Shown: in pieces, positions 1,255-19,598 of the stretch
How positions within the stretch are numbered: position 1 is the first letter of the stretch
Layout of the letters: each line of letters begins with the position of its first letter
Origin: a virus
Lineage: Duplodnaviria > Heunggongvirae > Uroviricota > Caudoviricetes
Virus record (IMG/VR): IMGVR_UViG_2526164634_000022
Length of the DNA: 19,598 nt
Reading direction: 5' to 3' (one strand)
The notes under the pieces: model-generated
The model's input: only the letters and a program-made list of their open reading frames with translations
Databases searched by the model: none
What the model was told of the DNA's origin: nothing
Program-made: the position numbers and the translations under genes

Positions 1255-1368
1255 ATAAAACCGGGTGATGCAAAAGTAGCCATTTGATTCACAAGGCCAT
1301 TGACGCATCGCCCGGTTAGTTTTAACCTTGTCCACCGTGATTCACGTTCGTGAACATGTCCTTTCAGG

Positions 1369-1444: not shown

Positions 1445-1461
1445 TTCATACATCTCCCCAA

Positions 1462-1545: not shown

Positions 1546-1609
1546 TCTACGGTCAGATGGGGGTACTTATGGGGGTATTTGCTGTTCGGTTTAGTGGAGG
1601 TACCCCCAA

Positions 1610-3886: not shown

Positions 3887-3898
3887 CGGAGACTGAAA

Positions 3899-4732: not shown

Positions 4733-4907
4733 GCCGACAGGAACACCACAACCTCAAAAACGCTACAAAGATGCCCACGGAGCACTCGTTACTGTCGAAA
4801 GCGTGTCTCACAACCGAGTGACGTTTTATCGCGACGGGTATCAATCGCCATGCGTACAACCGCTGGCACGTTTCATGAAGGAGTTCGCGGAGGTTAACAA
4901 ATGCTAA
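4725..4907 (+). CDS. small hypothetical protein (60 aa)
   Basis: ATG at 4725 with GGAGG 6 nt upstream, overlapping the end of the previous gene by 8 nt; in frame with the listed 4638-4907 ORF. Confidence 0.45.
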   Translation: MFKPTGTPQPQKRYKDAHGALVTVESVSHNRVTFYRDGYQSPCVQPLARFMKEFAEVNKC

Positions 4908-5968
4908 CCGCCCAGAAGAAGACATTTTCACTGGCTGGTATGTCGCCAAAATCCAGCAATATGACAGCAAAGTCAGGCATTAATACAGCAGATACAAGCA
5001 AAGTTTATCATTTGCTGGTGGTAGGAGCGGATGCCTTAACTATGTCAGAAATTACGGTCGATGGTGTTAGCGTTGAGAAGGTCAGCGGCTGCGCCAGAGA
5101 ATTTCTGGTCGTAGATGGCTTTCTCTGCTCGCGTAGTGACTCCACAAAAACCTTCGTCCACGCGCGTGACGTTAACGAAATGAGCGCGATGTACTGTGCT
5201 TCTGGTTCTTCCAATAGTGAGTTTTCGGAGTCCATAAAAAAGAGCTTGCCGTTATGCGGCAACACGGTTTATGGTTATAAGGCACCTCATAAAACGGGTG
5301 CCGGGATTGGCGTCCTGGTAAATCGAATGGCGACATATGACGCGCCGAGCGTCTTTTTTTATGTCGTAGGTCTGACTCACCCATTTTTTGGGCGTTGGTG
5401 TATAATCCAGCGCCTTTGTCAATCAATGGTGGCTCAGGCAGGGGCTTCTTCGGAAGCGCCGGTATCCATTCGAGCCGGTTACGCCAACCCTGTCTGGGCT
5501 ACCACCAGCGAAATTGGCGTTTCCGGTGGTAGCGTTACATGCTATCGAATGGAGGCTGCCACATGCTGGCTACTACCCCTACCCAAAAACCGCAATTTAT
5601 CTGGATTATCGCCGCAGTTCGCCGCGATTGCCCGACAATTACCGCCAAAATTCATCATATTGCTGCCGAGTCTGAACGCGATGCTCGCCGTTCTCTGGTG
5701 CGCGATCACGTCTGCTTTTTTGCTGGTCGTATCCGCATGGAGGTGGCACATGATTAAAACCTACGATGTGCATATGGATCCCCTCGAACGCACAAGCCAG
5801 ATCATCACACTGACAGAAGTGATTAACGACATTCTGGTGAGCAACTCTCCCTCACGAGACGAAAGACTGAAGGCGTTACTCGCGATATTGGATCTCGCCG
5901 TTCGTGACGTTCATTTCCTGCTGGAAGGTGGCGAAATGCCAGTAAAAACGGGGGAAACCAATGAATAA
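4901..5968 (+). CDS. long ORF of uncertain structure; 4901-5560 looks coding, the 3' part overlaps two better-supported small genes
   Basis: ATG at 4901 with GGAGG 9 nt upstream; the frame stays open for 355 codons, which is unlikely by chance; no recognisable family. True end unknown. Confidence 0.3.
5563..5757 (+). CDS. small protein, possibly Icd-like (P4-family host cell division inhibitor-like)
   Basis: ATG at 5563 with GGAGG 7 nt upstream; 64 aa ([57 protein letters not shown]...); the resemblance to Icd-like proteins is from memory, not a search. Confidence 0.45.
   Translation: MLATTPTQKPQFIWIIAAVRRDCPTITAKIHHIAAESERDARRSLVRDHVCFFAGRIRMEVAHD
5750..5968 (+). CDS. small hypothetical protein (72 aa)
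   Basis: ATG at 5750 with GGAGG 6 nt upstream; overlaps the previous stop (ATGATTAA); first gene of a chain of coupled small genes. Confidence 0.5.
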   Translation: MIKTYDVHMDPLERTSQIITLTEVINDILVSNSPSRDERLKALLAILDLAVRDVHFLLEGGEMPVKTGETNE

Positions 5969-6155
5969 CTCAATTAATACCCCTCGCCTTACGTCCGCAC
6001 TTCAATTAATCGAGCAAGCAGCGGCTGTCCTGGTTGCTGTCAGTCTTTCGGCTGAAGAAATGGACGCTACTGATGTCGTGGATGCGATTAAAGCGTGCTC
6101 ATCTTTGGTTAACGATGCCCGTGCAGAGCTGGTAATTCTTGGGGGTGAAAAATGA
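5961..6155 (+). CDS. small hypothetical protein (64 aa)
   Basis: ATGAATAA start/stop overlap with the upstream gene; G-rich RBS upstream. Confidence 0.5.
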   Translation: MNNSINTPRLTSALQLIEQAAAVLVAVSLSAEEMDATDVVDAIKACSSLVNDARAELVILGGEK

Positions 6156-6415
6156 ATATCAACTTAATTTATCGTCATCCGTGTGAGCTGGAAATTGAAT
6201 CATTGCTGAGCCGTGAAGAGCCATATCCAGACACATTCACTCTTGCAGATCGCACGACTGAACGGCTTACCAGAGCGCGCACAGGTCTGGTTCATGTGAT
6301 GAATGAGATTCTTCCATCGGTGGGAGGGGAACAGGCGACAGTAATCACTAGCTGGCTACAAAAAGTTACCTCTCTGATAGATATCAGTTTAATCGATGCG
6401 GAGAGTGCGAAATGA
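6152..6415 (+). CDS. small hypothetical protein (87 aa)
   Basis: ATGA start/stop overlap; GGGGGTGA RBS upstream. Confidence 0.55.
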   Translation: MNINLIYRHPCELEIESLLSREEPYPDTFTLADRTTERLTRARTGLVHVMNEILPSVGGEQATVITSWLQKVTSLIDISLIDAESAK

Positions 6416-6633
6416 CCAACATCCAGCTCATTGAAGCGCAATGTCGCATCGAACAGGTTCAGACTGTTTTAGGGTTCTGGCTTGAAGGGGCCAGCCCCAG
6501 CAACAGAGACAAGTTAATGATTGGCGCGGTTATGTCACTGCTCAATGGCGTACCAGAAGCTATTCAGGAAGCAGACGAATTGTTGGGCAAATATGAGTTA
6601 CAGAATCATTCAGGCGAGGCGAAACATGAATAA
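6412..6633 (+). CDS. small hypothetical protein (73 aa)
   Basis: ATGA start/stop overlap; GGAGAG RBS upstream. Confidence 0.55.
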   Translation: MTNIQLIEAQCRIEQVQTVLGFWLEGASPSNRDKLMIGAVMSLLNGVPEAIQEADELLGKYELQNHSGEAKHE

Positions 6634-7228
6634 TTTCTTAACTTTCCATGCAGAAGCAACGCCTGACGGCGTAAACATCATGCACCGCAGCAACGATGGC
6701 ATGACAGAACGCGTTGAGACCGTCTCATATATTGATGCCGTAAATCGTCTGGATGCCGGGGATTATGACGATAAACCAGATGAAGGCATGTCAATACATC
6801 TCGCTATAGCCGATGGCGGCAACCAGGGATATTTCGATTACACATCACAGCATAACGTCATTATGTGGAGATGGCTGATCGCAACAGTATTCATGCTGGA
6901 AATGAGAGAGGAAAACGGCACTGTCAGCATCATTGATGATACTGGCAATCCTTCCGAAGTGGCTGTTTATTCCAACGGCATCGTCGCCATGCCGCTGTAT
7001 CCAGTAGCAGAGCGCCTCGCTATGGCAAACAACATTGAGGGCGCGATGATAGAACGTTTTGGCATCGAGTCTGGCACAGAACGCGCCATCATTTTCTACA
7101 GAGCCATGATGGATGTGGAACAAGGAGCACTGACTCCATTTGGTCGTGAAACGCTTGCTGAACTTCACAACAGCTTTATAGCTGAACTGAATGAAAACGG
7201 CATGCCAGCGGAACCAGTGACGCACTGA
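6626..7228 (+). CDS. hypothetical protein (200 aa)
   Basis: Most likely start is ATG 6626 (ATGAATAA overlap with the upstream stop), not the longer 6521 ORF; part of the coupled operon. Confidence 0.6.
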   Translation: MNNFLTFHAEATPDGVNIMHRSNDGMTERVETVSYIDAVNRLDAGDYDDKPDEGMSIHLAIADGGNQGYFDYTSQHNVIMWRWLIATVFMLEMREENGTVSIIDDTGNPSEVAVYSNGIVAMPLYPVAERLAMANNIEGAMIERFGIESGTERAIIFYRAMMDVEQGALTPFGRETLAELHNSFIAELNENGMPAEPVTH

Positions 7229-7238
7229 GGATGGAGCC

Positions 7239-7580
7239 ATGATTACTAAAAATTTCCGACTGAATGCGCTGGCAAATAAGTATGCGTCGGCACTGTATAA
7301 CCACATTACCTCCACCAGCGGCGGGGACTATTTCATGGTTGATGCGGACGGCGAGGCCGTACGTGTGGAAATCGTCAATGGAGTAAAAGGCGTTCGCAGC
7401 CTGATCGATAGCTACACACTGGCAGCCATGAAAGTGTTCTACCCGCAGTGGGAAACCGTGGGGATCGAGCTTCTTGAGCGTTGCGTCACTAAGGACGGAT
7501 TGACTGACGTCGGGCGTGAGATATGGCAAAGCATGGTTAATGACATGGGCGCAACTGTAGCGGGAGGTTCTCATGCGTGA
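7239..7580 (+). CDS. hypothetical protein (113 aa)
   Basis: ATG with GAGGATGGAG upstream; 10 nt after the previous stop. Confidence 0.6.
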   Translation: MITKNFRLNALANKYASALYNHITSTSGGDYFMVDADGEAVRVEIVNGVKGVRSLIDSYTLAAMKVFYPQWETVGIELLERCVTKDGLTDVGREIWQSMVNDMGATVAGGSHA

Positions 7581-7944
7581 AAATGCAGAAATGGCGCTTA
7601 GCTCCGCAATCGGAGAGCAGGTGGCAAAGATTGCTGGTGCTGTGTGGATTCATAACCTTCATTCTACTGGTGAAGAGAAAATGGCAATTCAGACGCCAGA
7701 GGGACGCACCATTACTACATCTCTGAAGCCGTCAGATGTTTGTGATCTGATTTGCGCATTCATGTACCCAGCAATGAGGACTGTCCACGGCGATAAGTGG
7801 AAACTTGCGACAACCGCTGAATTTGATATGTGGCTAAACAATGATGGCATGCTGACTGATTACGGAATAACCAAGTGGCAGATGCTGGTTAGCCATATCG
7901 CAAACGCTATAGACCACGTGGGGTACGGTGATGCGAAACATTGA
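7573..7944 (+). CDS. hypothetical protein (123 aa)
   Basis: ATG with GGGAGG RBS; overlaps neighbours at both ends. Confidence 0.6.
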   Translation: MRENAEMALSSAIGEQVAKIAGAVWIHNLHSTGEEKMAIQTPEGRTITTSLKPSDVCDLICAFMYPAMRTVHGDKWKLATTAEFDMWLNNDGMLTDYGITKWQMLVSHIANAIDHVGYGDAKH

Positions 7945-10687
7945 TCTTATCCGTCAGGTTATCAGTGCGTCTGAAAACAACTGGCCTCATGTGCTGGGCT
8001 GCCTGAACATAAATGTCCCTGACTCTCCGCGCCGTCATGCTCCCTGCCCTGCATGTGGGGGCAAAGATCGATTCCGGTTCGATGACAACGGGCGCGGTAG
8101 CTTCATCTGTAATCAGTGCGGCGCTGGTGATGGGCTGGATTTAATTAAACGCGTAAATAACTGCGACACAACAGAGGCGGCGCTTCTTGCCGCTGATGTT
8201 CTGGGTATTGATTACCGGACAACGGAAACACCAGAAGCCACCAGCCAGAAACGGGAACAACTGGAAACCGAGCGCCAGCGACGCGAACAGGAGCGCCTGA
8301 AAAGGGCAGAGAAGGACGAACAACAAAGACGGGATACGTTTTCCCGTCAGTTTGATGACATGCGCAGAAAGGCTGTAAACGGCAAATCTGATTATCTGGT
8401 TGCGAAAGGGGTAGGTGATTTTACATTCCCCGTGTTGCCCGATGGATCTCTGTTGCTGGCGCTGGTGGATAAATCCGGCGCAGTCACAGCAGCACAGACT
8501 ATTACCTCACATGGTGAAAAAAGACTCCTGACAGGTTCAGCAAAGCGGGGGGCATATCACGCCTTAAACGCACCAGAAACAACACAGAGCATCTTAATCG
8601 CAGAAGGGCTGGCAACGGCATTATCTGCCCATTTAATTCGTCCAGAGGCGCTGACAGTGGCGGCAATTGATGCCGGGAACCTGTTATATGTGGCCCAGGT
8701 ACTGCGGGATAAATTTCCTTCAGCACAAATCATCATTGCTGCGGATAACGACCACAGCGAAGGAAGACAAAACACGGGGAGAATAGCAGCAGAAAAAGCA
8801 GCTTTATCTGTTTCTGGATGGGTGGCATTACCCCCGACAGATCACAAAGCAGACTGGAATGATTACCACCAAAAACACGGCATTAAATGCGCCACAGAAG
8901 CGTTCAATAAGTCAATGTACCAACCACAGGGTAATGGCGTGAAACAGGAGCCACAGACCATTGAGGGAAGCGATTTTAAGGTTATGGATACCGACCCACT
9001 GAAACCAAGAATAGAAAGCCGCGAGGATGGTATTTATTGGGTATCTCCGAGAGCTGACAACCAGAGTGGAGAAATCATCAATAACGAAAGCTGGTTATGT
9101 TCTCCGTTAAGCGTTATCGGTACTGGCAGAGACGATAAAGACCAGTATCTCATTCTTCGCTGGCTGTCGTTTGGTTCTGAAACGCCGACAACCGCTGCCA
9201 TTCCACTGGCTGATATTGGTGAACGTGAAGGATGGCGCACACTTAAAGCTGGTGGGGTAAATGTCACGACCAAAAGCAGCCTCAGAGCAATACTGGCAGA
9301 CTGGCTACAACGCAGTGGCTCTCGTGAATTGTGGCGTGTTGCTCATGCCACTGGCTGGCAATGCGGAGCGTACATCATGCCTGATGGGGAAATCATCGGA
9401 ACACCTGAAAATCCTGTGCTGTTCAGCGGGAGAAGCTCAGCCGCAGCCGGATATACCGTCTCAGGGAGCGCGAAAAGCTGGCGTGATAACGTGGCGCGTC
9501 TGGCCTTTGGTAACTATTCAATGATGACCGGGATAGGCGCAGCACTGGCAGCGCCATTGATTGGGCTGGTGGGCGCTGACGGGTTCGGCATTCATTTCTA
9601 TGAGCAGTCGAGCGCAGGTAAGACCACCACGGCAAACGTGGCGAGCAGCTTATACGGCAACCCTGATTTACTGCGGCTGACGTGGTACGGAACCGCGCTG
9701 GGGCTGGCAAATGAGGCCGCCGCCCACAATGACGGACTAATGCCGCTTGATGAAGTTGGTCAGGGCGCTGATCCTGTCAGCGTTTCACAGTCTGCCTATG
9801 CGTTATTTAACGGTGTAGGGAAACTGCAAGGCGCTAAAGATGGTGGAAACCGGGATCTAAAACGCTGGCGTACAGTGGCAATCAGCACCGGAGAAATGGA
9901 TTTAGAAACATTTATCGCTACTTCCGGGCGAAAAACCAAAGCCGGGCAACTGGTGCGACTGCTGAATATTCCGTTGAGTAAAGCAGTACGCTTTCACGAT
10001 TACCAGAACGGAAAACAGCACGCAGACGCACTGAAAGACGCTTACCAGCATCACCACGGCGCGTCCGGGCGTGAGTGGATTAAATGGCTGGCAGACCACC
10101 AGCAACAGGCTATTAAAACCGTTCGTGACTGCGAAAGCAGATGGAGAAGCCTGATCCCATCCGATTATGGTGAGCAGGTTCACCGTGTAGCCGCGCGATT
10201 TGCCATTCTGGAGGCCGCATTGTTGTTAGGCGAGGTTGTAACAGGCTGGGATGCTCAGACATGCCGTGATGCGATACAGCACAGCTATAACGCATGGTTG
10301 CGCGAGTTCGGCACAGGTAACAAAGAGCATCAGCAGATTATTGAACAAACGGAGGCATTTCTTAATGCCTATGGGCTTAGCCGTTTTGCACCATTTCCAT
10401 ACAGCCCGGCAGATTTGCCCATCAAAGATTTAGCCGGATACCGTCAGCGTGGAGAACATGACGAAAGCCCAATGATTTTCTACACATTCCCGGCCACATT
10501 TGAAAAGGAGATCGCATGTGGTTTCAACGCAAAACAGTTTGCTGAAGTGTTGAAAAAAGCCGGGATGCTAACCCCACCAAACAGCGGTCGTGGATACCAA
10601 AGAAAATCACCACGTATTCAGGGACGACAAATAAACGTTTATGTACTCAATTACCAGCCAGGAGATTATAACTCATCTGAAGAATGA
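7928..10687 (+). CDS. P4-alpha-like primase / replication protein (zinc-ribbon + Toprim primase + P-loop/DUF927-like C-terminal domain)
   Basis: 919-aa ORF (GTG 7928 or ATG 7931). N-terminal Cys4 zinc ribbon (CPACGG...CNQCG); Toprim-like motifs ILIAEGLATALSA (compare the P4 alpha EGYATA motif) and IIIAADNDHSEGRQNTG; P-loop-like YEQSSAGKTT; followed directly by an iteron origin. Confidence 0.9.
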   Translation: MMRNIDLIRQVISASENNWPHVLGCLNINVPDSPRRHAPCPACGGKDRFRFDDNGRGSFICNQCGAGDGLDLIKRVNNCDTTEAALLAADVLGIDYRTTETPEATSQKREQLETERQRREQERLKRAEKDEQQRRDTFSRQFDDMRRKAVNGKSDYLVAKGVGDFTFPVLPDGSLLLALVDKSGAVTAAQTITSHGEKRLLTGSAKRGAYHALNAPETTQSILIAEGLATALSAHLIRPEALTVAAIDAGNLLYVAQVLRDKFPSAQIIIAADNDHSEGRQNTGRIAAEKAALSVSGWVALPPTDHKADWNDYHQKHGIKCATEAFNKSMYQPQGNGVKQEPQTIEGSDFKVMDTDPLKPRIESREDGIYWVSPRADNQSGEIINNESWLCSPLSVIGTGRDDKDQYLILRWLSFGSETPTTAAIPLADIGEREGWRTLKAGGVNVTTKSSLRAILADWLQRSGSRELWRVAHATGWQCGAYIMPDGEIIGTPENPVLFSGRSSAAAGYTVSGSAKSWRDNVARLAFGNYSMMTGIGAALAAPLIGLVGADGFGIHFYEQSSAGKTTTANVASSLYGNPDLLRLTWYGTALGLANEAAAHNDGLMPLDEVGQGADPVSVSQSAYALFNGVGKLQGAKDGGNRDLKRWRTVAISTGEMDLETFIATSGRKTKAGQLVRLLNIPLSKAVRFHDYQNGKQHADALKDAYQHHHGASGREWIKWLADHQQQAIKTVRDCESRWRSLIPSDYGEQVHRVAARFAILEAALLLGEVVTGWDAQTCRDAIQHSYNAWLREFGTGNKEHQQIIEQTEAFLNAYGLSRFAPFPYSPADLPIKDLAGYRQRGEHDESPMIFYTFPATFEKEIACGFNAKQFAEVLKKAGMLTPPNSGRGYQRKSPRIQGRQINVYVLNYQPGDYNSSEE

Positions 10688-10712
10688 GCTTCTTCATGTG
10701 CGTAGAAAAGGT

Positions 10713-10832
10713 GTTGGTTCAGTTGGTTCAGTTGGTTCAGTTGGTTCAATTTGTAAAGAGTATTGTTTTATAAGGATTTTATTCTTTTTATTGAACCAAC
10801 ACTGAACCAACAACACGGTATTTTGAACCAAC
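10713..10832. repeat. Iteron-type replication origin: GTTGGTTCA x4 tandem (10713-10748), AT-rich spacer (10749-10791), then inverted TGAACCAAC x3 (10792-10800, 10803-10811, 10824-10832)
   Basis: Exact 9-bp units read from the sequence; iterons flanking an AT-rich segment, 26 bp downstream of the primase stop. Confidence 0.8.
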
Positions 10833-10882
10833 ACAATGTGACTGAATTGATGCGCACAACACCTGGCTGGCATCAGAGAGTG

Positions 10883-10958
10883 TTTTACGAGACTTTCGTA
10901 AAATCCTGTGTACAAGGGCGTGACGTTTTTGAAAGTGAGCACTACGAAATTTTCGTAG
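10883..10958. promoter_or_regulatory. Two related palindromes: TTTTACG-N7-CGTAAAA (10883-10903) and CTACGAAA-T-TTTCGTAG (10942-10958); candidate operator sites
   Basis: Inverted repeats seen in the sequence; both share the TACGA/TCGTA half-site; located between the origin and a terminator. Confidence 0.3.
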
Positions 10959-11152
10959 TTCAGAAAACAGCCTCTGAGAAGTTGTTATGCCTGTTCAGCA
11001 AACCATCCGCATAGCTGATCGCGAATCAAATTACCAATGGAGCCAGAAGCAAGGGCAGAACTGAAAAGCGCCTGCCGTGAAGAGTAATGCGACACCATAA
11101 ATATAGTTTTTAGAGTCCATAAAAAACCTGTCAAAACCTGACACACAGAACG

Positions 11153-11186
11153 ATGCCACCAGCTACTGAGCGGTGGCATTTTTTTG
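11153..11186 (+). terminator. Rho-independent terminator
   Basis: Stem ATGCCACC (11153-11160) / GGTGGCAT (11172-11179) with an 11-nt loop, followed by a T-run starting 11180. Confidence 0.6.
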
Positions 11187-11280
11187 TGCTATTTGTTTCA
11201 TATTTTGCAATTACGATGATGAATATTGCGATTTGTGAAACTATAATAACTGTTGTTTTATACAGTTCTAAGGGGGCGTT

Positions 11281-11442
11281 ATGGCTATTTCAGTAAAGCC
11301 GGTATTGATAAGTGAGAAGCAAATGGAAGCGATAAAGAAAATTCAGGAAGAGCAGCGTAAAAAATCAGGAATTGGAGTAGCGCCAACTCTGCATGAAATT
11401 GCACGAGGGTTAATAGATAAGGCGCTGGCAGGCTGTATGTGA
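11281..11442 (+). CDS. small hypothetical protein (53 aa; MAISVKPVLISEKQMEAIKKIQEEQRKKSGIGVAPTLHEIARGLIDKALAGCM)
   Basis: Not in the ORF track (under 60 aa); ATG 11281 with AAGGGGG about 6 nt upstream; preceded by a TATAAT hexamer at about 11243; first gene after the terminator. Confidence 0.5.
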   Translation: MAISVKPVLISEKQMEAIKKIQEEQRKKSGIGVAPTLHEIARGLIDKALAGCM

Positions 11443-11458
11443 AAATGGATGGCATCGC

Positions 11459-11920
11459 ATGGAACTAAAATTTATTGATAACCCTGTGCGATTACAGGCC
11501 TTTCTTAACGAGCCAGGCAATACCGAAAATATTGTTGAGCCGGGGCACACGTACTACATCAAGCCTGATGCGGTATATCTCGGCATCTACGAAGGATTAG
11601 TGCTGGCTGGCGTTCATGAAGTGCGTAACTTCTGGCATAGCGTTGTTGAATGCCATGCGGTGTACGACCCCGGATTCCGTGGTGAATATGCACTGCAAGG
11701 ACATCGATTATTCTGCAAATGGCTTCTCGAAAACTCACCATTCCTTAACAGCATCACTATGGTTCCTGACACCACGAAATACGGACGGGCAATTATCCGT
11801 TTGCTTGGCGCTACCCGTGTTGGTCACCTTGATGATGCTTATATCAGATGTGGTAAACCCGTCGGCGTAACGCTTTATCAGTTAACTCGGCAACAATATA
11901 AGGAATTCAGCGAATGTTAA
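11459..11920 (+). CDS. hypothetical protein (153 aa)
   Basis: ORF with the next gene's ATG overlapping its end; no family recognised. Confidence 0.6.
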   Translation: MELKFIDNPVRLQAFLNEPGNTENIVEPGHTYYIKPDAVYLGIYEGLVLAGVHEVRNFWHSVVECHAVYDPGFRGEYALQGHRLFCKWLLENSPFLNSITMVPDTTKYGRAIIRLLGATRVGHLDDAYIRCGKPVGVTLYQLTRQQYKEFSEC

Positions 11921-12591
11921 TTACCCATATAGCTCATAAACATCTCAATCGTGCCGTATACGAAAAAGGCGGTGATGGTGGTGCCTCTAAAGCTCAGGCG
12001 AAGGCCCAGCAGCAGGCAATTGATTTGCAGCGCGAGCAGTGGAATACGGTGATGAATAATCTCAAGCCGTATGCAGAAGTCGGATTGCCTGCTTTACAAC
12101 AACTACAAGGACTGATGACTCTGGAAGGGCAGAATAAAGCCGCGAATGATTTCTTTGGTTCTGGTTTATATAAAACACAGGCAGATCAGGCCCGTTATCA
12201 GAACCTTGTCTCAGCAGAAGCTACCGGGGGGCTTGGCTCAACAGCTACCAGTAACCAGTTATCTTCCATTGCGCCCATGCTTTATAACAATTGGCTTAGT
12301 GGGCAAATGCAAAATTATGGAAACCTGCTAAATGTCGGGATGAATGCGGCATCAGGGCAGGCAACGGCAGGGCAAAACTACGCCAATAATACCGGACAAC
12401 TCTTGCAGGGGCTTGGCGCTATTCGTGCAGGTCAGGCGCAGCAGCCATCCAGTCTTGCGCGTGGTATTGGTGGGGCAGCATCAGGCGCTTTAGCGGGTGC
12501 GCAACTTGGTTCCGTTGTTCCTGGAATAGGAACTGCGGCCGGCGCTATTGGTGGTGGGCTTATTGGTCTTGTTGGGGGGCTTGGATTCTAA
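11914..12591 (+). CDS. Q/A/G-rich protein, possibly a P22-family ejection (DNA-transfer) protein gp7 homolog
   Basis: 225 aa; N-terminal YEKGGDGGASKAQAKAQQQ, Q/N/A-rich middle, Gly-rich hydrophobic C-terminus (GIGTAAGAIGGGLIGLVGGLGF); size and first position in a three-gene coupled operon match P22 gp7 (229 aa). Homology is recalled, not searched. Confidence 0.5.
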   Translation: MLITHIAHKHLNRAVYEKGGDGGASKAQAKAQQQAIDLQREQWNTVMNNLKPYAEVGLPALQQLQGLMTLEGQNKAANDFFGSGLYKTQADQARYQNLVSAEATGGLGSTATSNQLSSIAPMLYNNWLSGQMQNYGNLLNVGMNAASGQATAGQNYANNTGQLLQGLGAIRAGQAQQPSSLARGIGGAASGALAGAQLGSVVPGIGTAAGAIGGGLIGLVGGLGF

Positions 12592-14012
12592 TGGCGACAT
12601 GGCAACTTGGCGGGCTGCCTAGCATGGCACCGCAAAATGATAATGCTCCTCGTTCTTCCGTTCCTCAGCCTGTGCAGTATCAGCAGCAGCCAAACGTAGG
12701 TTTAATGGCGCTACAGGGGCTAAGAGGCGTTGCTGAGATTAATCAGCAGGCACGTCAACAACAGCGTAAAGCAGAGTTTCAGAAAGCATATGCCGGGGCT
12801 TTTGAGTCTGGAGACAGAAACAAAATGCGCAGTCTTATTTCTGAGTATCCAGAAGAATTTGAAAGCGTTCAGAAAGGGATGGGCTTTATTGATGACGACC
12901 AGAGAAATTCTATTGGTCATCTTGCGACTAGTGCTCAAATCGCATCTTCGCTCGGAACTGGGGCATTTGGAAAATTCATAGCAGATAACGAAGATGAAAT
13001 GCGTCGCTTGGGAATTTCTCCTGAGTCTGTTGCCGAAATGCATGTTAATGATCCACAGGGGTTCCAGCGGCTTGCTGGTAGTATGGCACTGTTTTCTCTC
13101 GGTCATGAGAAGTATTTCGATATCAAAGATCAAATGGAAGGTCGGGATATTGAGCGTGGCAAGTTGGCAGAAACAATCCGCAGCAATCAGGCTGGCGAAG
13201 CACTTCAGGCGAGAGGGCAGGATATTAGCCGAGCAAATGCGTTAACGTCAGCATATGCACCAACAGCAGCAATGCAGAATTACAATCAGTACGCTCAAAT
13301 GTTAAAGGCGGATCCAGAGGGGGCGGCGGCATTTGCGGCAGCGGCTGGAATTAATACAAACGCCAAAAAATTAATGAGTGTTAGAGAAAACGATGATGGC
13401 ACTGTCACAAAATACTACACAGACGGAAGTGAAGAGCAGGGAAAACTAAACCAGCCAATATCTGGAGATGGGTTTCGTCCAATAGCTTTGCCAACAGCCC
13501 AAAAGATCATGGAAAAGTCGCCAGAAGGGGCTAAAAAAGCTGCTGGATTTGCATACAGGGTTAGGGATGCTCTTGATTCAATAGATACACTGAAAGACCA
13601 GCTTAGCCCACAGCGAGTGGCGATCATTAATAATGCTTTGGGTAATGGGACGCTGGCTAACTTAACGCTCAGCCCAACAGAACAGCAATACGTTGTTAAT
13701 GCTAATGACGCAATAATGGCAATACTCCGTCAGGAAACAGGGGCAGCCATCGTACCTGCTGAAATGTCAAAATATTATCAAATGTATTTCCCTCAGCCTG
13801 GCGACTCCACAAAAACCATTGATACCAAGCGCCGGAAGATGGAAAACCAGTTCAATTCGCTGAAAGCTGCTTCTGGTCGAGCTTATGATGCTTTGCGGGT
13901 TATTTCAGCAGTTGACAGAGGAACTTCTTCTTCGTCGCAGACATTGCCGCAATCTGAGCAGGTATCACAGCCAGCAGCCAGCAGTAACTTTTCTTCACTA
14001 TGGGGTGATTAA
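12591..14012 (+). CDS. Q/A-rich protein, possibly a P22-family ejection protein gp20 homolog
   Basis: 473 aa (P22 gp20 is 471 aa); TAATG start/stop overlaps at both ends; low-complexity Q/A-rich composition. Confidence 0.5.
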   Translation: MATWQLGGLPSMAPQNDNAPRSSVPQPVQYQQQPNVGLMALQGLRGVAEINQQARQQQRKAEFQKAYAGAFESGDRNKMRSLISEYPEEFESVQKGMGFIDDDQRNSIGHLATSAQIASSLGTGAFGKFIADNEDEMRRLGISPESVAEMHVNDPQGFQRLAGSMALFSLGHEKYFDIKDQMEGRDIERGKLAETIRSNQAGEALQARGQDISRANALTSAYAPTAAMQNYNQYAQMLKADPEGAAAFAAAAGINTNAKKLMSVRENDDGTVTKYYTDGSEEQGKLNQPISGDGFRPIALPTAQKIMEKSPEGAKKAAGFAYRVRDALDSIDTLKDQLSPQRVAIINNALGNGTLANLTLSPTEQQYVVNANDAIMAILRQETGAAIVPAEMSKYYQMYFPQPGDSTKTIDTKRRKMENQFNSLKAASGRAYDALRVISAVDRGTSSSSQTLPQSEQVSQPAASSNFSSLWGD

Positions 14013-16116
14013 TGGCTAAAGCATGGAAAGATGTTATCGCCTCTCCACAGTATCAGGCGTTAGCACCAGAACAAAAAGCGCAGGCTCAGGAGCAATACTT
14101 CAATGAAGTCGTGGCCCCGCAAGCCGGAGAAAGTGTAGAGCAGGCTAAGCAGGCTTTTTATGCTGCCTATCCACTACCATCAACGAATGAAATAGACCGA
14201 TCCCAATCAGCAACTCAAAATATTCAACATACATCATCTGATAATTCTCTTGCGTCAGGGTATGCAAAGTTAGCTACTCAGCAAAGAGAGGGGCTTGAGC
14301 GTTCAGCAGAACAGGGAGCCAGTCTTGGGGCTGCGATGCGCGATGCTATAACAGGCGAAAGCCGAATGACTCCAGAGATGGAGAGACTGCAAAATGTCGA
14401 CCTTGCCCCAGAGTTAACCTCACTCAGCATGGATGCTCTAAAAGCTCGATGGTCTCAACTTTTCGGCTCTGACGCATCTCAGGAAAAGATTCTTCAGAGC
14501 ATGGGAGCGAAATTAAGGCAGGATGAGAAGGGTAACACTATCGTTTCCCTGCCATCCGGTGATTATGCTCTGAACAAGCCGGGTTTATCGCCGCAAGACG
14601 TGGCATCGTTTCTGGCTAATGCGCAGGCGTTTACACCAGCGGGCAGGGCTGGAACGGTGCTTGGTGCCATAGGAAAATCAGCAGCTACAGATTTAGCACT
14701 ACAGGGAGCCACTAGCCTTGCTGGTGGAGAAGATATTGATCCGTTACAAACGGTAATTTCTGCTGGCATTGGTGGTATTGGTAAGGGGCTGGAAAATACA
14801 GCGAGTGCGGTTTCGAGGGCTGTTCGTGGTGATATGTCGCCTGAAGCAAAGGCTGCTGTCGACTTTGCATCGGAAAGAAATCTGCCGTTAATGACCAGTG
14901 ACATGCTAAAAGATAAAACCTTTATGCAGAGTCAGGCTCAGACATTAGGCGAAAGAGTTCCTTTTTTGGAACCGGTAAGAATCGGCTGAATCAACAACAA
15001 GCACGAGAAAATTTAGTCAGAACATTTAGCGATGGTCTGGGTGGCATTTCTGATAAACAGCTTTATGAATCTGCGACTAAAGGGCAACAAAAATTCATTG
15101 AGGCAGCGGGAAAGCGATATAACCGCATAATTGACGCTATGGGGGATACCCCTGTCGATCTCTCAAACACGGTAAAAGCTATCGACAATCAGATTGCCGT
15201 GTTAAGCCGCCCGGGCAAATCTCAGGATAGAGCCGCGGTAAAAGTCTTGCAGCAATTTAAAGACGATATCACCAGCGGACCAAATGACCTGCGTCTGGCG
15301 AGGGAAAACAGAACCGATCTTCGAAATCGATTTATGGCGTCATCTGACACTGTTGATAAAGATACGCTCCAGAAAGCCAGCGATATTATCTACAAGGCAT
15401 ATACGGCGGATATGAAAAAAGCCGTAGCCAAAAATCTTGGAGCAGACGAAGCCATTAATATGGCAAGGGTTGATCGCTCATGGTCTAAATTCAATGACAT
15501 GATGGGAAGAACGCGCGTTCAAAAGGCAATAGCCAGCGGCAAGGCCACGCCTGAGGATGTAACAAAACTCGTTTTTAGCCAAAGCCCATCAGAACGTTCT
15601 CAGCTTTACAGGCTTCTGGATGACAATGGTAGGCAAAACGCACGAGCAGCCATAGTTCAGAATGCTGTAGATAAGGCGACTGATCCGTCTGGAAATATCA
15701 GTGTTGAGAAGTTTATTAATGCGTTACACCGGAACAGGAAGCAATCAGCAACTTTCTTTAAAGGCGTACATGGAAAGGAACTGGACGGCGTTATTAAATA
15801 CCTCAACGATACAAGACACGCGGCAAAAGCGAACGTTCAAAACTTAAATGGTCAGCAGCTTTATGGATTGTTAGTTGGTGGTGGCATCATAAACGCAGCA
15901 GTATTAGCGGGGATGCTAAAAACGGCTGCGTTTGTTGTTCCTGCTGCTGGTGCCGTAGGCGGAGCAGCGAAGGCATACGAAAGCCCTGTTATACGAAATG
16001 CCTTGTTACGTCTGGCAAATACGCCAAAAGGTAGCACAGCATATGACAGAGCGATCAGTACGGTCACACAATCGCTCACCAGAGTCGCACAGGCATCACA
16101 AAAAGAAGCTCAATAA
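14012..16116 (+). pseudogene. gp16-like ejection protein gene split by a frameshift (or homopolymer sequencing error): ORF halves 14012-14989 and 15139-16116
   Basis: The downstream frame is open with no ATG from 14917 to 15138, overlapping the end of the upstream ORF; a T6 run at 14962-14967 lies in the overlap; the 150-bp gap contrasts with the 1-nt overlaps elsewhere in the operon. Confidence 0.55.
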
Positions 16117-16135
16117 CTGGTTAGCCATGGATGGC

Positions 16136-16750
16136 TTAGATATCTCTGCTGTCTCCATTAGGAAATAAAAGATAATATGGATTTGCCTTTCTTGCTCTCC
16201 TTGCTTCACCTGGATACCTGTTAGTCAGTAGCTTGCATAATGAGCAGAGAACAACACTCAAGAAAATTCCGAATGAGAAGATCAATATCTCACCAAAAAT
16301 CAATGGCGATATTAAATTTTCAGGATTTAATGATAAGTCAATGTTAAAAACATATTGAGCAATACCAGTAAGTATCAATAATATAATCCCTATGGAATAC
16401 ATTGCTGTTTCCCAAACATCAGACAGTCTATTTTTGAATTGTTCGCTGGAGTAGTAGTTTGTTATAAAGTCAGAAAAATCACTCTCATATGCATCATCTT
16501 TAGGTGATGTTAGAAATCCTCTGTCTCTCCATACCTTCTCCCAATTAGTCGATTCTTTTTTTAAGGAAAAATAAATATGTATTGCCAAAAGGATAGCCAA
16601 AATTGGTGTTAGCTCTAAAAAATAGAATGTTATGGAATAAATAATACTGCCATGTTCAAACTCATCTGGGACTATCATGTATGCACAAAAATAAATTGAA
16701 AAGTACACCATGCAGATAGTTAGCAATTCTTTAGTATCTTTTCTGCTCAC
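16136..16750 (-). CDS. AT-rich integral membrane protein (about 4 TM helices); candidate superinfection-exclusion (SieA-like) or other membrane effector
   Basis: 204-aa ORF, GTG start at 16750 with AAGGGGG 5 nt upstream; hydrophobic segments (LLTICMVYFSIYFCAYMIV, ILAILLAIHIYF, IGIILLILTGIAQYVF, IFGEILIFSFGIFLSVVLCSL); about 33% GC versus about 50% in flanks; convergent with the gp16-like gene, as sieA is with gene 16 in P22. Confidence 0.7.
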   Translation of the reverse strand: MSRKDTKELLTICMVYFSIYFCAYMIVPDEFEHGSIIYSITFYFLELTPILAILLAIHIYFSLKKESTNWEKVWRDRGFLTSPKDDAYESDFSDFITNYYSSEQFKNRLSDVWETAMYSIGIILLILTGIAQYVFNIDLSLNPENLISPLIFGEILIFSFGIFLSVVLCSLCKLLTNRYPGEARRARKANPYYLLFPNGDSRDI

Positions 16751-16863
16751 ACCAACCCCCTTTAGCGTTGTTTAGAATGGCAATCATCATATATCCAAGA
16801 CATGGCATTTGGTACATAGCTTGGGTCGGGATTTCAAATCCGCCCCCGTTGATGGGGTCGTTA

Positions 16864-17260
16864 CAGTACGCGCATATCCGCTTTATGTGAAACAGGAAGA
16901 TTTTTCTGATATCACTGCCACAGCAAAACACCAATTTCGAGACAAGTACGCGCGCGAGGGGTATCAGTTGCAAAAAGTTTTGCAACTGCGTCCGACCAGT
17001 ACGCACACAATGGAGGGGAGTACCATAAAACTGTTCTCTACATAAGACAGAGTGGTGGTGATGTGTTGATTATCGGCGTATATGCGCACAGGACGCGCTA
17101 TGACGATGTTTTATGCGGGTACACCAATCACATGTATCTGGTGTGATAAATCGCGTTACATGACATCTCATGTTGTGCTGGTGGTTATCACGACGTTCTG
17201 AATCTGGCCTTTGCCTGATATTTTGCGACAAGTACGCGCGCGTAGCATAGAAATTATCGG
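16864..17260. repeat. Repeat-rich noncoding region: exact 16-bp direct repeat GACAAGTACGCGCGCG (16941-16956, 17227-17242), AGTACGC(G/A)C motif x4, and palindrome CAGTTGCAAAA-AG-TTTTGCAACTG (16965-16988)
   Basis: Repeats read from the sequence; no convincing ORF with an RBS; lies between the membrane-protein gene and the Abi gene. Confidence 0.45.
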
Positions 17261-17393
17261 ATGGCGTATGCTGCTGGCAATATGAAGACCGATAGTATTA
17301 ACCGAAAAGCGATTAAGGAGTGCCAACTTTTCAGTAGAGAAACTAGCCAGCATAGGAAAATGTAGAAATTACCCAATTAATAGGTAAAAGTTA

Positions 17394-17523
17394 TTGACAC
17401 AGCCTGTAGTGGATAACGATATGAATAAAAACCACATATAGTGGTTTTTCGTGAGTGATGATAGTATCTATGTTAGTTTCCTAAGTAACTGTGCATTGAC
17501 ATGTGGATAACTTCGGATAGAGT
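17394..17523 (+). promoter_or_regulatory. Two candidate sigma70 promoters for the Abi gene, each with a DnaA-box-like site next to the -35 (TTGACA 17394-17399 + AGTGGATAA 17408-17416; TTGACA 17496-17501 + TGTGGATAA 17502-17510, -10 TAGAGT 17518-17523)
   Basis: Two perfect TTGACA hexamers; TGTGGATAA is the reverse complement of the DnaA box TTATCCACA. -10 elements are weak. Confidence 0.3.
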
Positions 17524-17619
17524 TACAGGCAACCGAGCCCGATCCTCTGTTTCTCCGCCGCCGATTTCAGGCATGTGAGTTTCACGGTCGGGCCTTTTAT
17601 TATCTTTTGTTTCGCCACT

Positions 17620-18597
17620 ATGATTGCCGCAAAGCCTCATAAGGACTATCACGAATTGCTAGGATTGCTACTTGAACGTGGCATGATTATCAATGATCGA
17701 AATCGTGCGATACGTAAGCTGTCGCAGGTTGGATATTATCGATTGTCAGGTTTTTGGTACCCATCAAGAATTATTGCGACAACAGATAAAGGTCTTTCGT
17801 ACAGAACAGACCGATTTCTTGCTGGTACCAGTTTCGAGAAGACGTACGATCTATATCTTTTTGACAAAAAACTGCGTCTTTTGATGATTGATGCTATCGA
17901 AAGAATAGAGATTCATGTTCGTTCAGTCATCGCGCATGAGGTTGGTCGCAATGATCCACTTGCCTACATGTCATCAAAATACATTAATCCAAAATTCTCA
18001 TCTGCCTTCGAGCATTGGGTGTATAAGCAAAAAGTAAAATTAGACGAAAGCAGAGATGACTGTATTGAATGGCATCGAAGCCAAGGCAAGGAGATTCCAT
18101 TTTGGGTGGCGGTGGAGACCTGGGATTTTGGTCAGATGTCTAAATATTATGCGATGCTTAATGGTCATATGCAGGGGAAAATTATACGTCGTTTTGGCAT
18201 TGATAATAAGCAGACATTTGCAAAATGGTTGAAGTGCCTTAATCTCATAAGGAATCGTTGCGCTCACCATTCCAGAATATGGAATAGAAAGCATCCCCGA
18301 GTTCCAGTACCGGATAATGAATACTTTGACGGACTTAATCTCCATCCAGAGAGTTGCGAGAGGATTTTTAGCGCGATCTGTATTATCTGGTACTTAGTTA
18401 AACGACTTGGTCCGGGATCAACATGGCTTCGGCAAATTGCAGACCTTATTGACTCTAAACCAAATGTTCCCGGATGTGGATATGATTCAATGGGTTTACC
18501 TGCTAAAGGATTCCCACGAGAGAGATTCTCTCAGGACTTAGGTTTTGTTATCGCCGACAACGACCCTGTAGCTGAAGGGCGGAAAGGGAGCGATTGA
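17620..18597 (+). CDS. Abi_2 family abortive-infection protein (AbiD/AbiF-like)
   Basis: Motifs YYRLSGFWYP, ERIEIHVRSVIAHEVG and NLIRNRCAHHSRIWN, characteristic of the AbiD/AbiF (Abi_2) family. Start set at the first in-frame ATG (17620); the track ORF extends to a GTG at 17575. About 40% GC. Confidence 0.8.
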   Translation: MIAAKPHKDYHELLGLLLERGMIINDRNRAIRKLSQVGYYRLSGFWYPSRIIATTDKGLSYRTDRFLAGTSFEKTYDLYLFDKKLRLLMIDAIERIEIHVRSVIAHEVGRNDPLAYMSSKYINPKFSSAFEHWVYKQKVKLDESRDDCIEWHRSQGKEIPFWVAVETWDFGQMSKYYAMLNGHMQGKIIRRFGIDNKQTFAKWLKCLNLIRNRCAHHSRIWNRKHPRVPVPDNEYFDGLNLHPESCERIFSAICIIWYLVKRLGPGSTWLRQIADLIDSKPNVPGCGYDSMGLPAKGFPRERFSQDLGFVIADNDPVAEGRKGSD

Positions 18598-18626
18598 GCG
18601 ATAAATATCATTTATACACTGATCAA

Positions 18627-19067
18627 TTACTGAAGCAGCGTATTGATTCTTTTAATATTGTTACCCTGACGCTTCCACGCGCTGTAAATGTCTTTATCCC
18701 ACGCTTTACCAGCTTTTGTTTGGTAGCCTGCTTCATTGAGTCGTTCCGCTATCACACGCCCATTATCAAATCCCTGTCGGATGGTATCGGCAATGATCTT
18801 TATAACTGCTGTTTCGTTATATGGCTTTGGTGGGATGTTCGGCTTTCCGGCAATAAGCGATGCTGCGGCTTTTTCCATGCGCTCCACCAGCCCAAGCATT
18901 CGTGAATCAATAGACTTTTCCGGCTGTCCCAGCTTCATGCGAATCGCATCAACAAGCCAGGAGGTTTTATCCCCTCCAGAAGCGAGAACAGACCGATTAA
19001 ACTCATCCTGCAATTCAGATGGGATGCGGAACGCGATCAGATTAGATTTGCTCATTGCAAAGACCAT
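18627..19067 (-). CDS. Arc/MetJ-type ribbon-helix-helix DNA-binding protein with a C-terminal recombinase-like DNA-binding segment
   Basis: 146 aa (start 19067 or 19055). N-terminus NLIAFRIPSELQDEFNRSVLASGGDKTSWLVDAIRMKL fits a beta-strand/helix/helix RHH fold; C-terminal GRVIAERLNEAGYQTKAGKAWDKDIYSAWKRQ resembles the recombinase domain of serine recombinases; palindrome GTATAACA-C-TGTTATAC (19090-19106) just upstream. Confidence 0.65.
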   Translation of the reverse strand: MVFAMSKSNLIAFRIPSELQDEFNRSVLASGGDKTSWLVDAIRMKLGQPEKSIDSRMLGLVERMEKAAASLIAGKPNIPPKPYNETAVIKIIADTIRQGFDNGRVIAERLNEAGYQTKAGKAWDKDIYSAWKRQGNNIKRINTLLQ

Positions 19068-19159
19068 ATCAGTGAGTAATATCCATACAGTATAACACTG
19101 TTATACGCTCAAATATCAGCCAGAAAATAACGAACCAATCACAAATCTATCGCTGTGTT

Positions 19160-19280
19160 GTTGGTTCAGAGCTGGGCTGTGTTGGTTCAAAATGAGTTGA
19201 TGTTGGTTCAATATTTTAGAAAAAACACAATAAAAACAACGCTCTTTACAAATTGAACCAACTGAACCAACTGAACCAAC
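19160..19280. repeat. Second iteron cluster, an inverted and diverged copy of the 10713-10832 origin: GTTGGTTCA at 19160, 19181, 19202 (21-bp phasing), AT-rich spacer, then TGAACCAAC x3 tandem (19254-19280)
   Basis: Same 9-bp unit as the first cluster; flanks also match (CTCTTTACAAATTGAACCAAC...ACCTTTT in cluster 2 equals the reverse complement of the cluster 1 flank; TGTGTTGGTTCAAAAT shared). Confidence 0.8.
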
Positions 19281-19316
19281 ACCTTTTTGCTTATCTATAT
19301 AATCTGAGAGGCAGAA

Positions 19317-19598
19317 ATGATAAAGGACAGGAAAGCTGAAGAGCTGGAGTCAAAAGGGCTATACCGGAGAGCTGCCGCACGATGGATGGAAGTCATGCTG
19401 TTATGCACCGAGGACGATGATCGGGAATGGATAAAGCGCCGCCGTGAAACGTGTCTGGAGAACGTGAAGCGCCCGCCCGTGAAGGTTGAGGACTTTGGCG
19501 ACCTGCATAAAGCTGTTACCGAAACGCAACACCGCATGGGGATAGCGCAACCGAACGGTAACGCCTTCCGGTTAAATGGCGGCAAGAGGCAAAGGTAG
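19317..19598 (+). CDS. PerC-family transcriptional activator-like protein
   Basis: 93-aa ORF ending with a stop at 19596-19598; N-terminus MIKDRKAEELESKGLYRRAAARWMEVM matches the PerC/Pch family signature; starts 37 bp after the iteron cluster. Confidence 0.75.
   Translation: MIKDRKAEELESKGLYRRAAARWMEVMLLCTEDDDREWIKRRRETCLENVKRPPVKVEDFGDLHKAVTETQHRMGIAQPNGNAFRLNGGKRQR

Follow-up and report, generated by a model that had tools for sequence, protein, structure and literature searches.

The closest described relative of the element analyzed here is EcCIMP1, a phage-inducible chromosomal island (PICI) of 19,963 bp that occupies a tRNA-Thr gene between proA and yagU in Escherichia coli MP1 (Pick, Stadel & Raivio 2025, PMC11773190). 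EcCIMP1 excises and circularizes only in lysogens of Kapi1, a phage of the P22 genus Lederbergvirus, both int and alpA being needed, and it is induced, excised and transduced only with this P22-like helper (PMC11773190). Some of its genes were labeled 'DNA transfer/DUF2824' and a role in packaging was guessed for them, and neither the packaging mechanism nor the source of the EcCIMP1-dependent boost to Kapi1 superinfection immunity was explained (PMC11773190). Our subject is a stretch of viral DNA of 19,598 nucleotides (nt) (IMG/VR record IMGVR_UViG_2526164634_000022; positions 1 to 19,598, hereafter the window) in which the genes of an island follow the tRNA gene thrW, and in particular four genes of this island that correspond to the ejection-protein module of phage P22. 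The window holds an EcCIMP1-family phage satellite, that is, a PICI whose regulation and replication genes form a P4-like backbone and whose integration site is thrW. It shares with EcCIMP1 the thrW site and the attachment (att) core, is 97.8% identical to it in nucleotide sequence over 1-12751 and has the same order of int, alpA, antA/B, ash, primase, small open reading frame (ORF), gp14, gp7, gp20, gp16 and PerC genes. The explanation that we favor, and to which we give a probability of about 0.6, is that a satellite parasitizing P22-like podophages supplies its own injection kit for the capsids that its helper builds.

Satellites are known to steal or resize capsids, to redirect terminases and to build heads of their own; to our knowledge none brings its own DNA-injection proteins. 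If the satellite ejection proteins load into helper heads they would represent a new layer of molecular piracy, and the satellite would offer a natural system for the assembly of divergent gp7, gp20 and gp16 proteins in one capsid and for the evasion of the exclusion protein SieA. Proteins of the P22 ejection type are defined by their inclusion in the procapsid and their ejection into the host ahead of the DNA. The window contains the following four coupled genes and a SieA-like gene after them:

11459-11920, plus strand: homolog of P22 gp14, a DUF2824 assembly factor, 153 amino acids (aa) (Pfam PF11039, E 1.5e-61; phrog_651, 'head morphogenesis')
11914-12591, plus strand: homolog of P22 gp7, an ejection protein, 225 aa (Pfam PF25688, P22_gp7, E 6.6e-73)
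12591-14012, plus strand: homolog of P22 gp20, an ejection protein, 473 aa (Pfam PF16928, Inj_translocase, E 4.5e-58; phrog_917, E 4.8e-112)
14012-16116, plus strand: homolog of P22 gp16, an ejection protein, 701 aa after a T6 to T7 repair at 14962-14967 and otherwise split into two 325-aa ORFs
16136-16750, minus strand: SieA-like inner-membrane protein, 204 aa, convergent with gp16 as in P22 (phrog_7745, E 4e-4)

The gp14 homolog scores 207 bits against PF11039, for which the cut-off is 25, lies immediately upstream of gene 7 and has 84-85% aa identity to the gp14 proteins of Kapi1 and 720R6 and 98% to that of EcCIMP1; no statement on the role of gp14 was found in the literature searched. The gp7 homolog scores 245.8 bits against a PF25688 cut-off of 28, with residues 16-223 placed on profile positions 19-229 of 230, and BLASTP gives it 55-58% identity to the phage gp7 proteins (P22, Sf6, Kapi1 and 720R6) and 98.7% to the EcCIMP1 protein. 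For gp20 the score is 197 bits against a PF16928 cut-off of 29.7, phrog_917 ('released upon infection') covers residues 1-473, and the first ~200 residues are 35-48% identical to the P22, Sf6, Kapi1 and 720R6 counterparts in pairwise BLASTP. The two halves of gp16, at 14012-14989 and 15139-16116, match the N-terminal and the C-terminal half of phrog_770 ('DNA transfer protein') with E 3e-40 and 4.8e-96, and the copy of the island in E. coli ET565 encodes an intact 701-aa protein, which can be aligned over its whole length with Sf6 gp13 (33% identity, 728 columns, E 8e-96) and over 482 aa with P22 gp16 (30%, E 6e-52). The nearest gp16 of an isolated phage is that of Escherichia phage N7, with 67% aa identity, and PF26808, the Pfam gp16 model, is recorded for the gp16 of sister satellites. 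None of the four module proteins had a match in NCBIfam, and the PADLOC defense models left gp14, gp7, gp20 and gp16 unmatched, matching only the neighboring AbiD. Judged by these profile and pairwise matches, the module genes are true homologs of P22 gp14, gp7, gp20 and gp16.

A first-pass annotation, made from the letters of the window and its ORFs, had proposed a P22 7-20-16 ejection-protein module with genes of 225, 473 and about 700 aa after frameshift repair. The proposal is borne out: the ORFs stand as called, the third protein has 701 aa in ET565, the homology seen with Pfam, PHROG and BLASTP is far beyond chance, and the profile searches against P22 and Sf6 suggested there as a check return PF25688, PF16928, phrog_917 and phrog_770. 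The gp14 homolog at 11459-11920 and the SieA-like gene at 16136-16750 had been overlooked. We agree as well that no coat, portal, terminase or tail genes accompany the module, none having been found within the window in a scan of its ORFs and annotation. The start and stop codons of neighboring module genes overlap, the end of gp14 overlapping the start of gp7 by 7 nt, an arrangement consistent with translational coupling. In P22 the genes run 14, 7, 20 and 16, followed by sieA on the opposite strand, and the block in the window is colinear with P22 14-7-20-16-sieA because it has gp14 upstream and the SieA-like gene downstream.

The break in gp16 is a run of six T at 14962-14967 in the window where ET565 has seven, one T having been lost. 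A 61-nt probe over this run matched 326 E. coli records, none of them with an exact T6; among the 60 matches listed one was partial, and 58 of the 59 full-length ones span 62 nt, as expected for T7, the other spanning 61. The run is unbroken in essentially all of the 325 E. coli genomes with the window's gp16 allele. Gp16 is intact in the E. coli population and the T6 break is private to the window sequence, which therefore contains at this point either a sequencing error in the homopolymer or a mutation of very recent date. A widespread decay of gp16, suspected from annotations reading 'hypothetical protein (x4)' and from matches of 2001 versus 2002 nt, was refuted, no genome sharing the T6.

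The junction that runs from the 3' end of the primase gene through the intergenic region into gp14 and gp7 was found in 236 of 5426 complete E. coli genomes, and the gp16 allele of the window in 325 E. coli genomes; at least about 4% of complete E. coli genomes have such an island, with defense and virulence-regulator cargo (AbiD, PerC-like). A comparison with other islands, which the first-pass annotation had recommended, was run and finds the same module beyond thrW. In E. coli 042 the segment 3445-16136 is present at 98.8% nt identity, with a different integrase, in an island beside dinD, and another E. coli subtype of the satellite adjoins xseA/guaB. The order primase, small ORF, gp14, gp7, gp20, gp16 recurs in Leclercia adecarboxylata, the Citrobacter freundii complex and Pectobacterium polonicum, and a Klebsiella sp. 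satellite (locus L050, 10001-14711) has the same order without gp14, its gp20 and gp16 being intact. Primase identity across the genera goes down to 68%. The satellite loci from Leclercia, Citrobacter and E. coli type-2 (L008, L043, L044, L046 and L047, at ~6700-9100) have extra genes for an SSB, a ProQ-domain protein and a 329-aa protein between the primase and the small ORF, and these three genes are absent from the window.

Across GTDB species genomes, a large protein collection and 80 IMG/VR loci, the identity of gp7 to the window protein is bimodal: loci at 71% or above with a readable flank are all satellites, with no portal or gp10, and loci at 70% or below are all complete P22-like phages or prophages (portal, coat, 4, 10, 26, 14, 7, 20, 16 and tailspike). 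By neighbor-joining, satellite gp7 forms a single clade on a long branch, and satellite gp14 forms a single clade that is sister to the Kapi1-type phage gp14. For each of the four genes, satellite copies from different genera give a ratio of nonsynonymous to synonymous substitution rates (dN/dS, Nei-Gojobori) of 0.04-0.08, with dS of at least 1; these values are equal to or lower than the phage-phage values of 0.04-0.20. The module is an old, selected and maintained component of the satellites across five genera and not prophage debris. Linkage that is independent of the att site, presence in five genera, purifying selection and monophyly all favor one of the two options that the first-pass annotation had left standing, namely that the island deliberately carries ejection proteins.

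The module is also mosaic. From gp14 to about codon 50 of gp20 the sequence is satellite-specific and nearly invariant within E. coli, and from there onward to the gp16 stop codon alleles have been swapped, with sharp recombination breakpoints at ~12726-12751, at 14240 and at 16134-16136, just beyond the gp16 stop. Over 14240-16136 the gp16 of the window is 92.9% identical in nucleotide sequence to the gp16 of a P22-like prophage at tRNA-Arg in E. coli SF-468. The gp16 of that prophage (L042, 13174-15187) is annotated as frameshifted in RefSeq, and the satellite could in principle complement it. Compared with its helper Kapi1, EcCIMP1 reaches no more than 26% identity in gp20 and 24% in gp16, a divergence that we count toward compatibility with foreign capsids; the satellite is not simply copying its helper, and helper-matched alleles were rejected for this sole proven pair. 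A variant in E. coli Ec-050-T20 (L039, 10651-14222) is without gp14 and gp7 and has intact gp20 and gp16; the N-terminus of its gp20 is different and more P22-like.

Beyond the SieA-like gene there is a noncoding region that resembles parts of small-terminase genes, with the following features:

16851-17245, plus strand: noncoding array of putative pac-site mimics, from comparison with the Kapi1 terminase region
16896-16915, plus strand: P22-type-like unit GAAGATTTTTCTGATATCAC, 12/13 core match
16934-16956 and 17220-17242, plus strand: Sf6/Kapi1-type units ATTTYGNGACAAGTACGCGCGCG, 16-17 of 18 nt matching
16854-16873 and 16994-17005, plus strand: degenerate units, read from the sequence

The Sf6/Kapi1-type 12-mer GACAAGTACGCG (extended ATTTYGNGACAAGTACGCG) stands at two places in the window, 16941 and 17227; EcCIMP1 and ET565 have three copies of it and other members of the satellite family between one and three, those of Leclercia and Citrobacter with one mismatch, and it is always on the module strand and downstream of gp16. 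Elsewhere in the 1.03 Mb of loci compared, for which 0.12 chance hits are expected, it occurs solely inside the small-terminase gene (terS), namely in Sf6, in Kapi1 and in a Kapi1-like prophage. In another natural terS allele the sequence is TTTCGTGACCAGTACGCG, and this 18-mer, with up to 22 nt of context, is exact in other satellites; in sister satellites 18 nt agree exactly with the Kapi1-type terS. For P22 the pac site has been defined by experiment as the 22-bp sequence AGAGAAGATTTATCTGAAGTCG inside gene 3 (quoted in PMC9611059). The 13-nt P22 pac core GAAGATTTATCTG is exact in P22-type prophage terS and in the Leclercia, Citrobacter and Klebsiella satellites, and within the same 1.03 Mb it lies solely within terS genes and downstream of satellite gp16; forms with one mismatch are present in the window (16896, GAAGATTTTTCTGATATCAC) as well as in the satellites of Pectobacterium and of E. 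coli type 2, and the likeness spans ~34 nt. Among the 80 IMG/VR loci the P22-type motif is at nt ~268 of terS in all 16 of the 16 P22-type genes and the Sf6-type motif at nt ~172-175 in 6 of the 10 Sf6-type genes, and both kinds of motif recur downstream of gp16 in most satellite loci in which this region is present. Translation of the units gives the TerS segments AKHEDFRDKYAK, RVREDLSEVVTRAEQ and EGFSNITTRAEE. The Leclercia and E. coli type-2 satellites have nine ~30-nt P22-like units and at least 3 Sf6-like units within ~550 bp. Arrays with units of 20-35 nt, up to ~12 in number, were also noted in L008 (15500-16080), in L046 (15690-16245) and, on the minus strand, in EcCIMP1 (L002, 10358-12456), the units of every array having the orientation of the module. 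Hits of a loose P22 pac pattern (up to 4 mismatches in 18) at the 3' end of some phage gp16 genes were set aside, being about as many as expected by chance and at homologous positions.

We infer from these matches that the arrays are pac mimics for several terminase specificities and a candidate packaging signal of the satellite family, the units imitating at least two, and probably three or four, TerS specificities. Mimicry of this kind probably explains packaging; it would account for the specific packaging of an island without a terminase gene by Kapi1, a phage that carries out no generalized transduction. The island, at ~19.9 kb, is roughly half of a P22-like headful, a proportion that we did not use as evidence since headful packaging of concatemers needs no such size.

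Ahead of the module there is a control cassette followed by a small gene:

11155-11267, plus strand: conserved control region, from an alignment of seven satellites and from the sequence
11281-11442, plus strand: small ORF of 53 aa heading the operon, 87-89% conserved in aa sequence in L039 and L040

The control region begins with a terminator hairpin with a T-run at 11155-11185 and an inverted repeat, TGCAAT-N13-ATTGC, at 11206-11229, both conserved across the seven aligned satellites. In the same alignment there is a perfect TATAAT at 11242-11247 without a usable -35 box, and an AACTGT..ACAGTT dyad at 11248-11267 lies over the likely transcription start. The cassette looks like an activator-dependent, operator-controlled promoter and would fit induction during the lytic cycle of the helper. 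The TGCAAT-N13-ATTGC dyad was found once only within the island and therefore gives no pointer to a shared regulator site, and the idea that the island holds a copy of the late promoter or qut of the helper was rejected, since nothing in it resembles the region that follows Q in Kapi1. The small ORF had no family match in Pfam, PHROG or NCBIfam, and a ribbon-helix-helix fold for its product is our guess; satellites of other genera have a similarly short ORF (53-56 aa) in this place. In E. coli islands a 53-57-aa ORF (window 11281-11442; L039 10473-10646; L040 10399-10572) together with its cassette (window 10882-11429) is ~94% conserved in nucleotide sequence. This extends to a related island that has a different primase and the same promoter and small-ORF cassette, with an HExxH protein instead of the ejection module, and the small ORF and cassette together look like a portable regulatory head for variable cargo.

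The course of events that we propose would begin with lytic growth of the helper, upon which the island would excise and replicate, as has been shown for EcCIMP1, and the ejection operon would be switched on from its own activator-dependent promoter. The satellite ejection proteins would be taken into assembling helper procapsids, the helper terminase would recognize the pac mimics and fill the head with island concatemer, and in the next cell the satellite proteins would build the trans-envelope channel. Because it carries its own kit, the satellite would be independent of the gp20 and gp16 alleles of the helper, including defective ones. The kit may also let the satellite enter cells guarded by exclusion proteins that target gp20 or gp16, such as SieA, and entry into cells with a resident helper prophage would be to the advantage of the satellite. 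In P22 the ejection proteins enter at procapsid assembly, need the scaffold and not the portal, and are 'incorporated if available', with gp7 as the primary binder that helps gp20 and gp16 into the procapsid (PMC4992974). P22 hybrids with very divergent ejection-protein sets are viable (PMC10883804), and the C-terminal parts of gp16 and gp20 are what exclusion proteins such as SieA act upon. Only tentatively do we go further and suggest that the two parts, a vertically inherited ejection set of its own, whose proteins would replace or join those of the helper in the capsid, and a multi-specificity pac array, by which several different small terminases could package the satellite, form an interface that is unlike that of any described satellite and is widespread in Enterobacterales.

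Several points weigh against the proposal that the satellite provides its own injection kit. For the presence of satellite ejection proteins in virions the support is indirect, from selection and the literature, and an effect of the module on transfer is presumed. Helper capsids already hold the ejection proteins of the helper, and for that reason the module is not obviously needed for transfer. The gp16 of this particular window is frameshifted. The variant of the L039 type amounts, by extrapolation from a sample, to roughly 130 E. coli genomes, and the full set is dispensable in some lineages, since L039 is without gp14 and gp7 and L050 without gp14. The slot after the small ORF can hold other cargo, as the unrelated HExxH protein of a related island demonstrates. 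The precise position of the Sf6 pac site within terS is presumed. Kapi1 transduces EcCIMP1 at a very low rate, about 5e3 per ml (PMC11773190). Finally, SieA proteins of types A and B excluded phages with several divergent ejection-protein sets (PMC10883804), and the rationale of bypassing exclusion is weakened on this account.

An alternative that we regard as unlikely is that the module acts against phages, either by poisoning the virions of helpers or competitors through mixed assembly or by jamming, from the envelope of the resident cell, the channel of incoming P22-like phages as a decoy or exclusion device. Satellites commonly interfere with their helpers, the module adjoins defense cargo (the SieA-like and AbiD genes), and in a related island the cargo of this slot is of a non-virion kind. 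EcCIMP1 also adds superinfection immunity against Kapi1, and it contains no known defense system (PMC11773190). However, EcCIMP1 leaves Kapi1 titers after induction unchanged and does not affect the infection of non-lysogens (PMC11773190). The module genes have no PADLOC match, and all four of them, including the non-virion assembly factor gp14, have been kept with phage-like constraint, which a jamming decoy would not need. In addition, the promoter looks inducible rather than constitutive, and an immunity effect of the window could equally stem from the SieA-like gene.

It is also conceivable, and in our view improbable, that a virion role was selected for the rescue of defective helper prophages that lack ejection genes, as an 'insurance policy' comparable to the second AlpA/Xis-like gene of the island. 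EcCIMP1 alpA_1 can replace the Kapi1 excisionase, for which its authors propose an insurance logic, and a Kapi1-like prophage is present in only 2 of 21 EcCIMP1 strains (PMC11773190); the P22-like prophage of SF-468 that shares the gp16 allele of the window has a frameshifted gp16. Selection from rare defective helpers nevertheless seems too weak for a dN/dS of ~0.05 across genera, the EcCIMP1 alleles are unrelated to those of its helper, and rescue would be a sub-case of the self-supplied injection kit and not an alternative mechanism. The prophage remnant that the first-pass annotation had offered as its other option, that is, an inert fossil in which a P22-like prophage and a satellite in tandem at thrW were fused by deletion and the genes are now decaying, is scarcely credible: thrW is indeed the site used by P22, with tandem elements known at it (ET565), the block follows the P22 gene order, gp16 is frameshifted in the window and some variants have lost gp14 and gp7, but the frameshift is private, the ORFs are intact in hundreds of genomes of five genera under strong purifying selection as measured by dN/dS, the same module is found at other att sites, and the satellite clades are old and monophyletic. 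A prophage-satellite fusion is plausible as the origin of the module, in which case it is ancient and its product was kept.

SieA, whose types include A and B, is a multi-pass inner-membrane protein, its gene standing between genes 16 and 9, with a cytoplasmic FxRYPxEAxxFNK motif near its C-terminus (PMC10883804). The SieA-like protein of the window is 29% identical to P22 SieA over 108 aa (pairwise E 8e-8), has RYPGEA after its last hydrophobic segment and, like SieA of type B, possesses one more hydrophobic segment at the N-terminus; the remainder of the motif differs, and there was no Pfam or NCBIfam match. The variable genes after gp16 gave no informative match in Pfam, PHROG or NCBIfam. 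Near-consensus sigma-70 promoter matches (10/12) lie at 17253-17280 on the minus strand, facing the SieA-like gene, and at 17496-17523 on the plus strand, facing AbiD; from the first of these, transcription would run leftward across the pac-like array. As pattern matches, these sigma-70-like promoters of the SieA-like gene and AbiD are as expected for expression from the resident island, and we take the two genes beside the module as defense cargo of the resident state.

The remaining features of the window are the following:

1-1254: proA, the window beginning inside the gene
1369-1444, plus strand: tRNA-Thr (CGT) gene thrW (ARAGORN)
1428-1437, within thrW: left attachment core TCCTATTATC, the published EcCIMP1 att core, in a single copy in the window
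1610-2824, plus strand: island integrase of the tyrosine type (RefSeq, from the identical island; integrase domain in NCBIfam, E 9e-90)
3252-3455, plus strand: AlpA-family regulator, by annotation; alpA of EcCIMP1 is the master activator of the island cycle (PMC11773190)
5282-5509, plus strand: isrK RNA (5282-5359) and C4 antisense RNA (5422-5509), Rfam 67.1 and 79.5 bits, both above the gathering score
7928-10687, plus strand: primase/replicase with Zn-ribbon, Toprim and DUF927 (Pfam), 99.3% aa identity to the EcCIMP1 primase
10713-10830, plus strand: probable replication origin with four tandem GTTGGTTCA iterons, an AT-rich spacer and inverted TGAACCAAC copies, read from the sequence
17575-18597, plus strand: AbiD/Abi_2 abortive-infection gene, island cargo (Pfam Abi_2, E 2.3e-52; PADLOC AbiD, E 8e-58)

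In E. coli ET565 the att core TCCTATTATC is found in two copies that bound an island of ~19.87 kb, and the right copy of the window lies beyond its end. Across 4.8 kb the window and ET565 differ at two positions only, one of them the missing T of gp16. In ET565 (L001, 1-6036) the island is not directly beside thrW and stands in tandem behind another prophage with baseplate, tail-fiber and gtr O-antigen-modification genes. An AntA/B antirepressor gene and several small ORFs are also annotated among the island genes before the primase, and the start of a PerC-like gene, after AbiD, is the last feature of the window. By their Rfam scores the isrK and C4 RNAs, which lie within the 'ash' ORF, are a P4/P1-type immunity RNA region. 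This ORF of 355 aa encloses both RNAs, and the annotations of ET565 and MP1 treat it as a pseudogene; it may be partly spurious because the two RNAs lie inside it. The putative role of 10713-10830 as the origin is suggested by its place directly after the primase. Iteron clusters, with GGTTCA/TGAACC repeats around an AT-rich spacer, were seen both at 10713-10830 and at 19155-19280, the latter being an inverted copy just upstream of the PerC-like gene.

Among known systems, P4 resembles the island in its P4-type integrase at a tRNA gene, AlpA, C4/CI antisense RNA with an Icd-like gene, Ash-family gene, large primase and defense cargo close to one end. It differs in that the island has no sid, psu or delta and no P2/P4 cos, the island primase has DUF927, and the helper of P4 is a P2-like myophage whereas that of the island is a podophage that packages by headful from pac. 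The first-pass description of the replication module as P4-like consequently holds for the backbone of integrase, AlpA, C4 RNA/icd and primase, with P4-type immunity present (C4 at 79.5 bits and isrK at 67.1 bits in Rfam, Icd-like and AlpA by annotation), and fails for the rest: sid, psu and delta are absent from the annotation of the identical island and from the family matches of the scanned proteins, and the P4 cos 19-mer has no match within 3 mismatches in the window. Its naming of thrW as the integration site of P22 and Sf6 was likewise half right, as P22 uses thrW but Sf6-type phages use a tRNA-Arg site (an IntS prophage at tRNA-Arg).

P4, with its cos, and Staphylococcus aureus pathogenicity islands (SaPIs) such as SaPIbov5, with cos or pac, copy the packaging signals of their helpers; like the island, such satellites have no terminase of their own and carry a signal that the helper recognizes. 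The satellite arrays differ from the P4 and SaPI signals in having several short units, multiple TerS specificities and, in some cases, ~12 units, and we know of no multi-specificity pac array of such kind. The P22-like phages themselves (P22 14-7-20-16-sieA; Sf6 10-11-12-13) have the same genes, order and coupling, a convergent sieA-type gene and the same mosaicism, gp7 being the most conserved part and gp20-C/gp16 varying most. The satellite module, in contrast, has no portal, scaffold, coat, tail or terminase genes, is preceded by its own promoter cassette instead of belonging to a Q-dependent late operon, and has its gp7 and gp14 in satellite-only clades.

EcCIMP1 is the nearest of all. 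Its gp14 and gp7 are 98-99% identical to those of the window, but the two become unrelated at about codon 50 of gp20 and stay so through all of gp16, the proteins having 439 and 906 aa in EcCIMP1 (the 906-aa one with SLT) versus 473 and 701 aa in the window, and the SieA-like and AbiD cargo is that of the window. The published account of EcCIMP1 is without the identification of P22 14-7-20-16, the family-wide selection, the allele exchange with prophages and the pac arrays. With these, each of the three open points of EcCIMP1, namely packaging, the role of the 'DNA transfer' genes and the boost to immunity, gains a concrete hypothesis.

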